From an uncultured Chloroflexia bacterium (GTDB lineage Bacteria > Chloroflexota > Limnocylindria > Limnocylindrales > CSP1-4): a DNA stretch of 64,000 nt. Positions 39,829 to 45,009 of this stretch are shown one piece after another (position 1 is the first letter of the stretch; each line of letters begins with the position of its first letter). The notes beneath the pieces were generated by a model. The model was not told where the DNA came from. It worked only from the letters and a program-made list of their open reading frames with translations, and searched no databases. The stretch lies in the NCBI GenBank assembly GCA_963768655.1, contig CAVYIM010000007.1, forward strand, positions 201,597 to 265,596, written 5' to 3'. The position numbers and the translations under genes were made by a program.

Positions 39829-41691
39829 TCATGGTCTGCGGGCGGCGGTTTCCTCGGTCAGTCGATCGATGAACGCGTCCCAGGCGACGCCGTTCTCCTG
39901 CTCGCCGGCGCGGTTTCGGATCGCGACCGTGCGCGCTTCCACTTCCCGATCTCCGAGCACGAGCATGTACGGCACCTTCTGCTCCTGGGCCAGCCTGATC
40001 TTGTTCTGCATCCGGCTGTCGGAGTCGTCGACCTCCACGCGCAGCTTTCGCCCCTTGAGGAGGCCCGCCAGGTCGCGGGCCGCCTCGACGTGCCGATCGG
40101 CGATCGGGATCACCACGGCCTGTACCGGTGCGCACCACACCGGGAAGGCGCCCGCGAAATGCTCCACGAGCACGCCTATGAATCTCTCGAGCGAGCCGTA
40201 GATGGCCCGATGGATCGTCATCGGGCGGACGGCCTGGCCGTTCTCATCGATGTAGGTACAGTCGAATCGCTCGGGCAACATGACCAGATCGACCTGGATG
40301 GTGGCTGTCTGCCACTCCCGCCCCAACGCATCCTCGATCTGGATGTCGATCTTGGGGGCGTAGAACGCGCCGTCCTTCGGCTTGAGGCGGTACGGCTTGC
40401 CGAGCGAATCGAGAGCGGCCTTGATCTGCGCCTCTGCCGTCTCCCACAGGGCAGGGTCGCCGAGCGCCTTGTCGGGCCTGGTGCCGAAGGTGAACTTGGG
40501 CTCGAGGCCGAACCAGCCGTAGACCTCGTAGACCTCGCCCAACAGGGCCTTGATCTCGTCCTGGAGCTGGTCGGGCCGGAGGTAGATGTGGGCGTCGTCC
40601 TGGACGAAATGGCGGACACGGGTAAGGCCCGAGAGCGTGCCCGATCGTTCGTTTCGATGCAGTCGGCCGAAGTCCGAGTAGCGGAGCGGCAGGTCGCGGT
40701 AGGAGCGCAGCTTGCTCCTGTAGATGAACGTGCTTTCGGGACAGTTCATCGGCTTGAGGCTGAAGGTCTGACCCTCGGACTCGAGGATGAACATGTTGTC
40801 CTTGTAGTTGGCCCAGTGCCCCGACTGCTCCCACAGCTTCTTGTGGACGAGAAGCGGCGTGCTGACCTCCTGGTAGCCGCGGCGGTCCTGGACCTCGCGA
40901 ATGGCCGTTTCCAGCGTTCGCCAGAGTCGCTGACCCTTTGGGTGCCAGAAAGCCGACCCGGGGCTGACGTCGTGGAAGCTGAAGAGGTCGAGCTGGACAC
41001 CGAGCCGGCGATGATCGCGCCGCTTTGCCTCCTCGCGGCGGTGAAGATAGGCCTCCAGCTCCCCCTGAGTCGGCCATACGGTGCCGTAGATGCGCTGCAG
41101 CATCGGCCGCTTCTCGGAGCCGCGCCAGTACGCGCCCGCCACGGTCATGAGCTTGAACGGGCCGATCTTGCCCGTGCTGGCGACGTGGGGGCCCTTGCAG
41201 AGATCGATGAAGAGACCGTGCTGGTAGGTGGAGGTCGGAGGAAGCGGTGTGCCGGCCTCCGTGGATCGGGCGGCCAGGTCGTCTAGGATTTCGACCTTGA
41301 AGGGCTGCTCACGAGCTTCGAAGAAGGCGCGGCCTTCCTCGAACGGAATCTCCTTGCGGACGAAGGCGTTGTCGGCGGCGATCGAGGCACGCATCCCGCT
41401 CTCTATTGCGGCGAGGTCGTCGGGGGTCAGGGGGCGAGGCAGCAGGAAGTCGTAGTAGAAGCCGTCTTCGATCGACGGCCCGATCCCGAGCTGAGCGTCC
41501 GGGAACAGTGCCACGACCGCCTCGGCCATCACATGGGCCGCCGAATGGCGCATCGCGTCCAGATCGGAGTGGGCGCCGGCGTCGAGGAGTTCATCCACGG
41601 AGCCGCGGTCGACCGCGTCGAAGAACTCCTCTGGCTCTGCGGGCTCGGCTCCGCCCGACTGAGCCGCCTGGATCTCCTGATCGTTGCTCAT
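39829..41691 (-). CDS. thrS: Threonine--tRNA ligase
   Basis: RHSAAH, DLCKGPH, RDHRRLG, KPMNCP, RNERSG, GAFYAPKID, HRAIYGSLERF. Confidence 0.98.
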   Translation of the reverse strand: MSNDQEIQAAQSGGAEPAEPEEFFDAVDRGSVDELLDAGAHSDLDAMRHSAAHVMAEAVVALFPDAQLGIGPSIEDGFYYDFLLPRPLTPDDLAAIESGMRASIAADNAFVRKEIPFEEGRAFFEAREQPFKVEILDDLAARSTEAGTPLPPTSTYQHGLFIDLCKGPHVASTGKIGPFKLMTVAGAYWRGSEKRPMLQRIYGTVWPTQGELEAYLHRREEAKRRDHRRLGVQLDLFSFHDVSPGSAFWHPKGQRLWRTLETAIREVQDRRGYQEVSTPLLVHKKLWEQSGHWANYKDNMFILESEGQTFSLKPMNCPESTFIYRSKLRSYRDLPLRYSDFGRLHRNERSGTLSGLTRVRHFVQDDAHIYLRPDQLQDEIKALLGEVYEVYGWFGLEPKFTFGTRPDKALGDPALWETAEAQIKAALDSLGKPYRLKPKDGAFYAPKIDIQIEDALGREWQTATIQVDLVMLPERFDCTYIDENGQAVRPMTIHRAIYGSLERFIGVLVEHFAGAFPVWCAPVQAVVIPIADRHVEAARDLAGLLKGRKLRVEVDDSDSRMQNKIRLAQEQKVPYMLVLGDREVEARTVAIRNRAGEQENGVAWDAFIDRLTEETAARRP

Positions 41692-41732
41692 CCTGTCAGC
41701 CCGCCTTTGCTATCAAACCGGCGTTAGCGATC

Positions 41733-41985
41733 GAAACACAAAGCCTCCCGTCCGACAGGACGAGAGGCTTCTCTCGCGGTTCCACCCGCCTTCGCGCCGC
41801 CCACGGTCAATCCGCCGGCGCCGCGCGCTCATGCCGCTCTCACGGGCGGATCCCGGGCCGGTTCCCCGGCCGCTCACGGTTGGTGCCAGCGCCGGCGACG
41901 ATCGTCATCGATCTCAGCGGTGGCGATGCCACCTCGACGACTCTCTTGGATCCTGCCGGCGAAGCGTGTCCCGCTCGTCGCTTTG
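41733..41985 (-). ncRNA. T-box riboswitch (Thr)
   Basis: AAGAGAG and GCTGAGA stem I motifs; ACC specifier (41882-41884); AAGGCGGGTGGAACCGCG T-box (41775-41792); terminator agcctctcgtc-ctgtcg-gacgggaggct followed by ttgtgttt. Confidence 0.92.
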
Positions 41986-42023
41986 GATATGCAGTTTCCG
42001 GGGCGCCGCCTGGGCAGCCTCGA

Positions 42024-42100
42024 TGGTGGGCGGTAGAGGACTTGAACCTCTGGCCTCATGCATGTCAAGCATGCGCTCTAACCAACTGAGCTAACCGCCC
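42024..42100 (-). tRNA. tRNA-Val(GAC)
   Basis: Full cloverleaf: GGGCGGT/ACCGCCC acceptor, CATGC-TTGACAT-GCATG anticodon arm, AGAGG-TTCAAGT-CCTCT T arm, encoded CCA. Confidence 0.97.
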
Positions 42101-42154
42101 GGGTGCGCGGCGGATCGTAGCACAGGCGGTCGCGGCGAGCGGGCCGAGTACTAA

Positions 42155-42667
42155 CTAAGGCAGCGCTTCAGATGCCAACACAGCCCTCGCCATTCGGCTT
42201 CCACCGACTAACGGCCCAAGGAGTGCCGAAGCGGCCGCGAGCCACGTGATGAGCGTCCATTCGCCAAGAGGGTTCAGGAGAAGCAAGGCGAGGAGGGCCA
42301 GAGCCAGATAGGTTCCGTCGACACACAGAAGGAGGCCAAGCGCCGACCGCTTGAGCCAATTGACAACACCGATCAGGTCGCCTACGGCGATAGCCAACGC
42401 AGCCACTGCAACCAAGGCCCACAGGCCATAGAAGAACACATCTACGCCGCAGGCATTTCCAGCCCCGAAGAACCACTCGACCGCATCAGCGATTGTGAGG
42501 TTCCCGGGTCCTGGTCGGCCGCACAGCTGTCCGGGCCCAGGGTCAACCGCGACACCGCCAGGAGTGACAAGTGCCCAGACAAGCACGCCGGCGACTAGCA
42601 CGAGCGAGGCGATGGCGGCCATGTGGGATAGCGTCCCCAAGGCCCGCGCCGCTCGCAGCCACTTCAT
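42155..42667 (-). CDS. Hypothetical multi-pass membrane protein (170 aa)
   Basis: GGGAGGG RBS, ATG 42667; about 4 hydrophobic segments; two Cys in the first loop; more A/T-rich codons than the flanking housekeeping genes. Confidence 0.65.
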   Translation of the reverse strand: MKWLRAARALGTLSHMAAIASLVLVAGVLVWALVTPGGVAVDPGPGQLCGRPGPGNLTIADAVEWFFGAGNACGVDVFFYGLWALVAVAALAIAVGDLIGVVNWLKRSALGLLLCVDGTYLALALLALLLLNPLGEWTLITWLAAASALLGPLVGGSRMARAVLASEALP

Positions 42668-42781
42668 CTCAGGCGCCCTCCCCGTTCGTGCCGTCGACCT
42701 GCGAACACAATAATCGACGGGCCTTCGCTCGCCCGATCCGTGCGTGAATTGGCGTCTGGCTACACCGCTCGGGGGCTCAAC

Positions 42782-42823
42782 GCATGTCAAGCTCTAACCA
42801 ACTGAGCTAACCGCCCGGGTGCG
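42782..42823 (-). repeat. Truncated copy of the tRNA-Val 5' half plus upstream flank (6-nt deletion)
   Basis: Identical to 42060-42107 except for loss of atgcgc; the match ends just past the anticodon loop. Confidence 0.9.
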
Positions 42824-42929
42824 GGGCGCATCATAACGCATCAGCCTGTGGCGGGGCTGACGCCGGAGCCGCTCGGGCGGACGGCCTGACACTCGGGCTG
42901 AGGGCGAGGATGCGCCGGACGTCGATCTG

Positions 42930-43988
42930 TCACCCAAGCCAGACCTGGCCCTCCGCCCGTGTGAACGGAGCGGCCGAGTCGGTCTCCTTCGACCAGCCCG
43001 AACCGCTTCGAACGTAGGTGAGCTCATGAATACCCGCCACAACGCCGCTCGCGTCCTCTGTGCCGGAAAGCATGGCCAGGCGCGAACCGTCGGCGCTCAG
43101 GGCCAGATCCCAGACAACCTGCGACGGTTCGAGCGACGCCGCGGTGGGCGGCTCCTTGCCCCCCAGCCAATCGGCGACGGGCGCCACGTAGACCGCTGAC
43201 TCCGTTGCCGCAGCGAGGCTCTCGCGATCCGGCGACAGGGCGAAGACACGCACGCCCCCCAACCCGCCCAGGAGAAGGATCGTGCGCTTTGCGGTATCGA
43301 CGACCGCGAGACGTGGGATCTGGCGGGCGTCGTCCGATATCACCGCCAGCCGTTGAGAGTCGATCCATGCGACTGATGGACCAAACGGTGAATCCGGCGC
43401 CGGCAGGAGCTCGACGGTCGACCCATCCGTTGCGACCACACGGAATGCCAGTCCACCCGAAGCTGAGACTGCGATCGCCGTCACGCCGGCGTCCGAGCGA
43501 TCCACACCGACGATCGTTCCGTCGAGCGGCTGGTTGCCCGAACGAGGCGATATCGTCGCCACGGTGGTCTGTGGGCTGGCGTCGGCTCGCAATTCAAGCG
43601 ATCCACCCATTCCCAGGACGAGTGTCTGTCCGTCTCGAGCCAGTGCGGTAGCCTCCGGCAGCGGCCATCGCGGGGCCCAGGTCCCGCCCGTATACGTCCA
43701 CAGCCCGACGCCACCCTGGACCCCATCGGCAAGCACGAGCAGCTGCGGTGCCGGCACGCCCGTGGCGACCGGCGACCCCGAAACCGTGGCTTCGGTCGGG
43801 TCGGTTGGACGAATGGAGACGGCAGTGGTCGCTGGAGGCGCGACGCTACCGCTGGCTGTGCCGCCAGATGTGCCCACGCCCGCGGCGCAGCCGGTCGCCG
43901 CCACGGAGAGGCAGAACGCGACTGGAACCAACTGGCGACTCAGCGTGGCTGCGAGTTCCTTGATACGGGTACGCGAACCGTGGATCAT
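42930..43988 (-). CDS. Hypothetical lipoprotein-like protein, probable beta-propeller
   Basis: AAAGGGGG RBS, ATG 43988; hydrophobic segment ending ATGC; S/T/P linker; repeats such as VAWID, FALSPDRE and LALSADGSRL. Confidence 0.7.
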   Translation of the reverse strand: MIHGSRTRIKELAATLSRQLVPVAFCLSVAATGCAAGVGTSGGTASGSVAPPATTAVSIRPTDPTEATVSGSPVATGVPAPQLLVLADGVQGGVGLWTYTGGTWAPRWPLPEATALARDGQTLVLGMGGSLELRADASPQTTVATISPRSGNQPLDGTIVGVDRSDAGVTAIAVSASGGLAFRVVATDGSTVELLPAPDSPFGPSVAWIDSQRLAVISDDARQIPRLAVVDTAKRTILLLGGLGGVRVFALSPDRESLAAATESAVYVAPVADWLGGKEPPTAASLEPSQVVWDLALSADGSRLAMLSGTEDASGVVAGIHELTYVRSGSGWSKETDSAAPFTRAEGQVWLG

Positions 43989-44085
43989 GTGATCCCCCTT
44001 TCTGAGGCGGCCCGCGCCCGCCCAACCGGACGGCCGCGGGCCGCCGAATGGTGGGGTTGCCATCACTGGCCGAACCCCATCGCCT

Positions 44086-45009
44086 TCACTCCACGAAATC
44101 TCCACCGATGATGGTGCCGTCGCCGGCATCGATGAAGATGCTCATCAGCCAGACGTAGTTGGCCGCGTCGCCGGAGGGCTTCACTTCGCTCACCCAGGCG
44201 AGCCTGTACGGTGCCTCGGAGGCGCTGATCCCGGCCGGATCGAACGCCGCATTGGGCCCGACCCACTCCAGGTCGAGCTTCTGGATCGCATATCCCGAGT
44301 TCCGGCCGGCGAACCAGCGGTTGAGGTTCGTTGCCGCGATCTGGCGGGCCGTCTCCGAAGGAATCGAGCTGAGCGGCGCAGCAGCCAGCTCGTGCTCCGC
44401 ACGGGCCACACTCTCGATGCGCCCGTCGGGCCAAACCTGGACGCGAGTCTCGTCGCCACGCACCCGGACACCGTCCTGCGTGCGAGCCCAATGCACCGTC
44501 CACCCGCCCGTTGCCTGATCGGCCTCGGTCGAGGTGGGAGTTCCTACGCCAAGGCCGGCCGCCAGGACTGACTTCTGGGCCGATCTCACGGCGCTGTCCT
44601 GGGTGATTCGAAGGCCCGCCGCAGGGGCGGCATCCAATCGAACCGCGGCCCGCAAACGTCCCTTCGAATCGAACTGAGTGACCGACTCGACGTCGCCTGC
44701 GGAGTCGAGCTCGGTGACCTCGTCGTACTCGGCGTCTTCAAAGCCATCAAGCACGTGACGACCGACGCGTTTGACGCCCACCGGGAAGCCCAACGCCTCG
44801 CGCGCCAGGCCCTCGCGGGCGAGCAGCACCGCGTCGGTATTCGCGTCCAGGGCGGCCTCGACTCGAGACGGATTCCCGATGGTTTCGCCCGGCGAGTCAG
44901 GCGACCTGGGAGCCGCCTCGATGCGGCCCGCCGATACGGCAACGCACATCAGAGCTATCACGCCCAGGGCCAGGGAGGATCTTGCGTTCTTGATGATGGA
45001 GGCTCGCAT
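44086..45009 (-). CDS. Secreted protein with a C-terminal PepSY-like segment
   Basis: Signal peptide MRASIIKNARSSLALGVIALMCVAVSA; C-terminal YRLAWVSEV...IFIDAGDGTIIGG; starts 5 nt after the upstream stop. Confidence 0.65.
   Translation of the reverse strand: MRASIIKNARSSLALGVIALMCVAVSAGRIEAAPRSPDSPGETIGNPSRVEAALDANTDAVLLAREGLAREALGFPVGVKRVGRHVLDGFEDAEYDEVTELDSAGDVESVTQFDSKGRLRAAVRLDAAPAAGLRITQDSAVRSAQKSVLAAGLGVGTPTSTEADQATGGWTVHWARTQDGVRVRGDETRVQVWPDGRIESVARAEHELAAAPLSSIPSETARQIAATNLNRWFAGRNSGYAIQKLDLEWVGPNAAFDPAGISASEAPYRLAWVSEVKPSGDAANYVWLMSIFIDAGDGTIIGGDFVE

Follow-up and report, generated by a model that had tools for sequence, protein, structure and literature searches.

Integrative elements that reverse the usual orientation of their tRNA target were reportedly described by Zhao and Williams in J Bacteriol in 2002, and Williams is said to have set out, in Nucleic Acids Res in the same year, a class of tRNA integration sites at the anticodon loop. 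Recombination of an element with the 5' part of a tRNA gene is documented, though uncommon; one article cites Zhao and Williams (2002) together with several archaeal cases (PMC6563490), and the Islander algorithm explicitly allows for a 5' fragment that lies upstream of the gene (PMC4383910). CIMEs are flanked by att sites, with attL and attR intact by definition, and are devoid of integration and transfer (recombination) genes (ICEberg 2.0, PMC6323972).

Here we analysed a tRNA-Val(GAC) locus in a 64-kb stretch of DNA (the window) from an uncultured Limnocylindrales bacterium (Chloroflexota), whose own genome, G000, is a MAG of 9 contigs and 88.6% completeness. As in reversed-orientation elements, an intact tRNA has a displaced 5' fragment upstream of it in direct orientation, the 5' part of the gene comes with the element, which must also bring the promoter, and an integrase gene lies beside the restored gene in the full-length relatives of the window unit. 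In contrast to those elements, the window copy is only 0.72 kb long and contains one orphan ORF, no integrase gene, and a captured-looking chromosomal promoter as its X arm. The host, an uncultured Limnocylindrales bacterium, also differs, in a comparison made through citations. The window locus resembles the anticodon-loop class in that the block of identity ends 3 nt past the loop and the anticodon stem forms a symmetric core round a 7-nt loop, and differs from it in that the block spans the loop, the 5' end and the promoter. Like CIMEs, the unit is att-flanked and has one ORF without integration or transfer genes, and tandem accretion at the same site occurs in a relative (G011); unlike CIMEs, it has lost 6 nt from its attL core and has no known conjugative partner, and any mobilisation is hypothetical. 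An analogy can also be drawn with integron cassettes, in that promoterless-looking single ORFs follow a promoter fixed outside the unit, and a tyrosine recombinase whose gene lies elsewhere would move the units that have no integrase gene. Unlike cassettes, these units have no attC hairpin and no IntI-type integrase, use a double-stranded tRNA core with arms, and bring one tRNA promoter per unit. The configuration belongs to a documented minority class, so that 'exceptional' would overstate it, and the window unit is a decayed or miniature form of this known minority kind of integrative element.

Partial duplication of tRNA-Val(GAC) in the window

A single tRNA-Val(GAC) was called at 42024-42100 on the minus strand (ARAGORN; Rfam RF00005, 73.7 bits), and this gene is present in only one copy among the 51 tRNAs of the G000 genome. 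A second copy of its promoter and of tRNA positions 1-41, minus 6 nt, was found at 42782-42840. The repeat finder aligned 42075-42124 with 42791-42840 at 90% identity over 50 nt, and past the 6-nt gap ten further bases, gcatgtcaag, are identical (42060-42069 and 42782-42791). The first 26 nt of the tRNA had two exact matches in the 64 kb compared with zero expected from 100 shuffles. The upstream fragment corresponds to positions 1-41, that is, through the anticodon loop plus GC, the 6-nt deletion having removed the 5' strand of the anticodon stem. Read on the minus strand, it runs from a promoter-like stretch into the truncated tRNA and on into unrelated sequence; the intact gene lies 716 nt away in direct orientation. 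Both copies have a -10-like hexamer 13 nt before the tRNA +1, TACGAT at 42114-42119 with a TG at 42121-42122 for the intact gene and TATGAT at 42830-42835 for the fragment, and upstream of the tRNA they are still alike, with five mismatches in about 17 nt. An earlier note made from the letters alone had described this duplicated promoter and 5' half with its deletion, and ARAGORN, Rfam, the repeat finder and the shuffles bear it out; the two hexamers also lie as it had stated.

All features of the locus are encoded on the minus strand. The p399 lipoprotein gene (42930-44129), the conserved left neighbour by tblastn synteny, marks the native place of the tRNA and is followed by a displaced native tRNA promoter of type A (42817-42846) that points into the Y arm and the membrane ORF, and by the displaced native 5' fragment, or attL core (42782-42816), which breaks after GCTTGACATGC. 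The unit itself is composed of the Y arm (42681-42781, delimited with an nhmmer arm profile), which is the end of the insert adjoining the fragment, a single cargo ORF (42155-42667) and an X end. The latter consists of a 54-nt spacer (the element-side X arm, 42101-42154) with an extended -10 promoter of type B, which would now serve the restored tRNA, and of tRNA positions 1-41. Within the intact tRNA (attR, 42024-42100), positions 1-41 were read as element-derived and 42-77 as native. The conserved right neighbour, thrS with a T-box-like leader (39829-42023; ORF list and Rfam), has been kept with the intact tRNA. While attR is intact, the 6 nt missing from attL are the 5' strand of the anticodon stem, beside the presumed crossover. 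Repeated AGCG-type motifs in the Y arm, GAGCGGTG and GAGCGAAG, are candidate arm-type integrase sites.

The cargo reading frame is open from 42155 to 42790. Its likely start, ATG at 42667, is preceded by a Shine-Dalgarno-like run, GGGGAGGG, at 42676-42683 and gives a protein of 170 aa with about four hydrophobic, presumably transmembrane, segments in the hydropathy profile. No homologue was detected by tblastn in the related loci, the protein matched itself alone among 5.8 billion proteins, and it belongs to no Pfam family. Its GC content at the three codon positions (0.71/0.52/0.68, compared with 0.67/0.43/0.86 in thrS) is atypical for the G000 genome.

The thrS leader (41700-42023, minus strand) begins directly after tRNA-Val and is 75-91% conserved in most genomes of the genus, so that a tRNA promoter brought by the element may also feed thrS. 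A weak Rfam T-box match lies in it at 41756-41832 and contains GGGUGGAACCGCG, and a terminator-like hairpin was seen at 41746-41760.

The same locus across the genus

The comparison of this locus covered 24 genomes from the genus, which belongs to the uncultured Limnocylindrales (Chloroflexota). By tblastn, its members share the gene order p353-p373-p399-tRNA-Val-thrS. Four genomes (G017, G020, G008 and G022) have an empty site, in which the p399 stop codon is followed by 60-95 nt, the promoter and tRNA-Val, and thrS. The earlier note had suggested alignment with relatives lacking the segment, and these four genomes are such relatives. In occupied loci it is the 5' fragment that sits in the native place after p399 (113 nt from it in the window, 97 nt in G005 and about 57 nt in G007), and the intact window tRNA stays linked to thrS. 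All fragments in the genus break after the same nucleotide, at the end of GCTTGACATGC and 3 bases past the anticodon loop, the window fragment sharing its break point with those of six other genomes. Beyond each break comes a homologous arm, about 95 nt long, in which AGCG-type motifs recur. A profile built from six of these arms matched window positions 42780-42681 with an E value of 9e-18 (nhmmer) and also matched G001, G005, G007, G010, G011 (twice) and G012; in the whole G000 genome this window segment was its only match. The Y arm is not part of the normal chromosome downstream of tRNA-Val in the empty-site genomes.

The arm marks the start of a 14-kb insert in both G001 and G005, and the far end of this insert is a tyrosine integrase gene (PF00589 and PF13495) that is divergent from the restored tRNA and 100-120 nt away from it. 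The same integrase adjoins the tRNA or the fragment in G004, G007 and G011, and only an integrase stub is left in G003. Neither an integrase nor a remnant of one was found in the 64-kb window by tblastn with the G001 and G005 integrases as queries. The statement of the earlier note that no integrase is present therefore holds for the window and fails for the element family, whose islands in relatives carry one. Taken together, the empty sites, the shared break and arm, and the integrase islands indicate that the window fragment is the displaced native 5' half of the tRNA.

The restored tRNA of G005 has a D loop one base longer than that of the displaced fragment, which indicates that the 5' half is foreign and that the crossover lies 3' of the D loop, up to position 41. 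The element-borne 5' halves of G005 (locus L014, 15841-15918) and G012 (L035, 16141-16218) have the D loop AGCCTGGTTA as against AGTTGGTTA. Since the longer D loop came from the element in both genomes, integration alters the sequence of an essential tRNA. The G005 island (L014, 1819-15840) encodes an ArsP-type permease, a MerR-LMW phosphatase fusion, a MIP channel, a CDF transporter and a chromate transporter, and is thus a metal and metalloid resistance and transport island.

Other genomes display further stages at this locus. G011 carries a tandem array in which the older fragment is heavily mutated; on its contig 21 (L019, 2840-5053), a mutated type-B promoter and fragment lead into the arm and a minimal element of about 2 kb with little beyond the integrase gene, and then into another fragment with its arm. 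The second element has a first ORF with a weak HepT/HEPN-like match. G012 has kept the arm and lost the fragment. In the same genome, the C-terminal fragment of a DDE transposase (L035, 15931-16113; motif YNRARPHWSL) ends immediately upstream of the tRNA-Val promoter, inside a 1.6-kb remnant in which a partial MFS transporter is also present. G010 mirrors the window unit: its displaced fragment is of type B and continues into the arm and a single lipoprotein gene, after which the intact tRNA has a type-A promoter. The lipoprotein gene and the type-A promoter recur in G009, in which fragment and arm have been lost, and the two lipoprotein units are 85% identical compared with 69-75% for the flanking chromosome, which is suggestive of horizontal transfer of the unit. 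The tRNA-Val locus is a hotspot of element insertion and decay.

Two types of promoter occur at these sites. Type B precedes the intact gene in 12 genomes of the genus, including all four empty sites, and type A is found at the native place in G000 and G005. The type-A block, GATGCGTTATGATGCG, is identical to the intact tRNA-Val promoters of G018 and G010 and differs by one base from that of G009. The native attL of G007, with its promoter and fragment, matches all 68 nt of window positions 42060-42127 (100% identity), and a weaker likeness, judged by eye on the sequences, reaches about -48. The X arms of integrase-bearing elements contain a conserved motif, GCGGTATTCGAGCGGTGTAGG, the halves of which recur in the Y arm; these are probably arm-type integrase binding sites. 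The window X side is without GCGGTATTCGAGCGGTGTAGG and resembles the chromosomal p399-tRNA spacer of other species. The window Y arm is homologous to that of the mobile family members; its X arm shares with them only the tRNA 5' half and the promoter. Judged from such likeness, the one-gene units without an integrase carry a chromosomal-type promoter from another lineage.

The type-B promoter is predicted to serve the restored tRNA from its conserved extended -10 at a fixed 13 nt from +1. A scan for sigma-70 consensus promoters with a -35 element found none; those present belong to the -10-only or the extended -10 kind. The type-A promoter is intact, and neither a terminator nor a stable structure lies between it and the membrane ORF. 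Five elements have their first cargo ORF in the same orientation, starting 94-115 nt past the core and each time preceded by a purine-rich run. This anatomy fits the idea, raised in the earlier note, that the displaced promoter drives the membrane ORF. The other product envisaged there, a stable small RNA from the tRNA fragment, finds no support, because a search for structured RNA or a terminator in the attL transcript gave a z-score of +1.5 and the only terminator-like site is the hairpin in the thrS leader.

Insertion model and rival explanations

We consider, with a probability of about 0.87, that 42060-42781 is a 0.72-kb member, without an integrase, of a genus-wide family of integrative elements, and that it entered by a reversed, 5'-restoring insertion at or beside the tRNA-Val(GAC) anticodon loop. 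The insertion point, its polarity, the division into native and foreign parts and the homology to integrase-bearing islands are established at the level of sequence comparison. The native promoter and tRNA positions 1-41 were left beside p399 as attL (42782-42846). The insert begins with the family arm, continues with the orphan membrane ORF and ends with its own promoter and tRNA 1-41, which are joined to the native 3' half as attR with the link to thrS kept. Through this junction the only copy of the tRNA is kept whole.

Going by what is known of tyrosine integrases and of anticodon-loop tRNA sites, strand exchange by a tyrosine integrase of the clade found in the relatives would have taken place within tRNA positions 20-41 or thereabouts, most likely in the 7-nt anticodon loop, with the anticodon stem providing the flanking core sites and the AGCG-type motifs the arm sites, and the enzyme would have either acted in trans or been lost later. 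The 6-nt deletion would have removed the left core half-site of attL, and the displaced type-A promoter may still work and read via the fragment into the membrane ORF. Since the attL core is damaged and no cognate integrase is present in the genome (88.6% complete), the unit is probably immobile now.

How the unit itself arose is a separate matter. A plain internal deletion of an integrase-bearing element was considered and rejected, as it leaves the chromosomal-type X arm unexplained. One possibility is duplication of the attL junction by aberrant capture, followed by site-specific excision between both cores; alternatively, homology-facilitated recombination could have replaced the integrase end.

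The 5'-restoring insertion with a crossover near the anticodon loop, one of two origins that the earlier note had put forward, is strongly supported by the empty sites, the shared arm and the integrase islands of relatives. What counts against it is that the window unit has neither an integrase gene nor a remnant, that its chromosomal-looking X side does not have the integrase-proximal arm motifs, and that integrase activity and crossover position are deduced from sequence; moreover, neither the genus comparison nor the G000 genome yielded an excision product, a same-species empty site or a second copy of the unit. The other origin proposed there, a local tandem duplication of promoter and tRNA in which the upstream copy lost its 3' half and captured an unrelated ORF without site-specific recombination, would agree with two copies in direct orientation, 716 nt apart, with no integrase gene between them. 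It fails to account for a fragment that ends where those of six other genomes end and continues into the arm common to the 14-kb integrase islands, and for the fragment, rather than the intact gene, lying at the native distance from p399. In addition, the two promoters represent distinct allelic types, and yet the copies agree in their tRNA parts; upstream regions that have diverged beside identical tRNA parts point to separately evolved genes joined by recombination, not to a recent duplication. We therefore regard tandem duplication as very improbable. A chimeric join or a mis-resolved repeat could be imagined in a MAG of this contig number and completeness, yet the copies differ by the 6-nt indel and five upstream mismatches and so do not represent a duplicated read pile, the same architecture recurs in independent assemblies of at least six other species, and base composition is continuous across the region, which together make an assembly artefact scarcely credible. 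A MITE- or IS-like repeat was ruled out, since no further copy of the unit or of the Y arm exists in the G000 genome.

A further rival reading is that the unit is a working one-gene cassette, CIME- or integron-like, which is moved in trans by the integrases of full-length elements and uses the displaced tRNA promoter as its expression signal. Two independent one-gene units, that of the window and the lipoprotein unit of G010, do combine an intact Y arm with a promoter-bearing X end, and each brings a promoter type native to other species, a type-B unit residing in a type-A host and a type-A unit in a type-B host. The excess similarity of the G009 and G010 lipoprotein units over their flanks (85% versus 69-75%) and the tandem arrays of G011 would likewise be expected of cassettes. 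However, the attL core of the window is damaged by the deletion, the X side is without the arm motifs of integrase-bearing elements, the membrane ORF was found nowhere else, and the Y-arm profile matched one site only in G000, a genome that encodes no cognate integrase, its best candidate being 49% identical and located in a canonical tRNA-Gly island. A working cassette is thus unlikely, and the insertion of a unit that is probably immobile now is the reading that we prefer.

The integrase clade and its tRNA targets

A profile search with one genome per species gave 373 relatives of the integrase, of which 80 loci were kept. Reversed orientation, in which the tRNA 5' end is nearest the integrase gene, was found in 59 of 68 scorable loci; here the integrase gene has the tRNA gene 110-250 nt upstream of it and on the other strand, and tRNAs for Val, Pro, Thr, Ala, Arg, Lys and Gly serve as targets. 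Nine loci, including the paralogue of G000 itself, are canonical, and 13, mostly at contig ends, have no tRNA. On the maximum-likelihood tree, orientation requires 3 changes compared with 8.5 in shuffles (none of 500 as low), and one clade contains 47 reversed and no canonical loci. The tRNA-Val integrases form a subclade beside the tRNA-Pro integrases. Four further loci have a second copy of the tRNA 5' half beyond the integrase gene; such 5'-half duplicates occur at tRNA-Pro, Ala, Gly and Arg loci, and no 3'-half copies were found there. In the Pro and Ala fragments the break falls at positions 39-41, and an arm of the same design comes next. The clade was found in Chloroflexota and Actinomycetota.

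In the G000 genome, the integrase closest to the tRNA-Val clade, at 49% identity, belongs to the canonical tRNA-Gly(CCC) island (L037). Five other tRNAs of this genome have canonical displaced 3' halves, and Val-GAC is the only one with a 5' fragment. On contigs C3, C4 and C5, these 3' halves lie downstream of Thr-CGT at 1.1 kb, of Lys-TTT at 16.4 kb, of Ser-TGA at 12.7 kb, of Gly-CCC at 17.1 kb (the island with the L037 integrase), and of Leu-TAG as a tandem array of four fragments at 3.2-11.5 kb.

The new results for this locus are the cognate integrase clade and the proof by empty sites. They identify the likely enzyme family, provide a candidate recombinase for 5'-half units without an integrase, and define the att sites. 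Insertions replace the promoter of an essential tRNA and, in G005 and G012, also part of its sequence, and the old promoter left facing the cargo could offer a simple route to the expression of acquired genes. For the window alone the biology is modest, namely an orphan membrane ORF in a probably immobile remnant. A broader proposal, which we put forward tentatively and with the odds against it, is that Limnocylindria and related soil bacteria use the 5' side of their tRNA genes as a cassette platform. Short units with one or a few genes and no integrase gene, each bounded by a module of promoter, tRNA positions 1-41 and the arm of about 95 nt, would be moved in trans by the large and almost always reversed integrase clade, and the displaced native promoter would express the first gene. 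If so, each event would give a new promoter, and at times a new D loop, to an essential tRNA that is present once and lies directly upstream of thrS, and the window unit would be a cassette caught after decay of its site and carrying the native promoter of another lineage.

Two further loci were noted in the search. An integrase with 72% identity to the tRNA-Val/Pro clade (L048) comes from a contig that was binned as Isosphaeraceae (Planctomycetota), which is probably a mis-binning or else an inter-phylum transfer. On contig C5 of G000 (270.6-271.5 kb; L038/L039), an integrase-like frame with an in-frame TGA lies beside tRNA-Gln(CTG) and is probably a decaying island.
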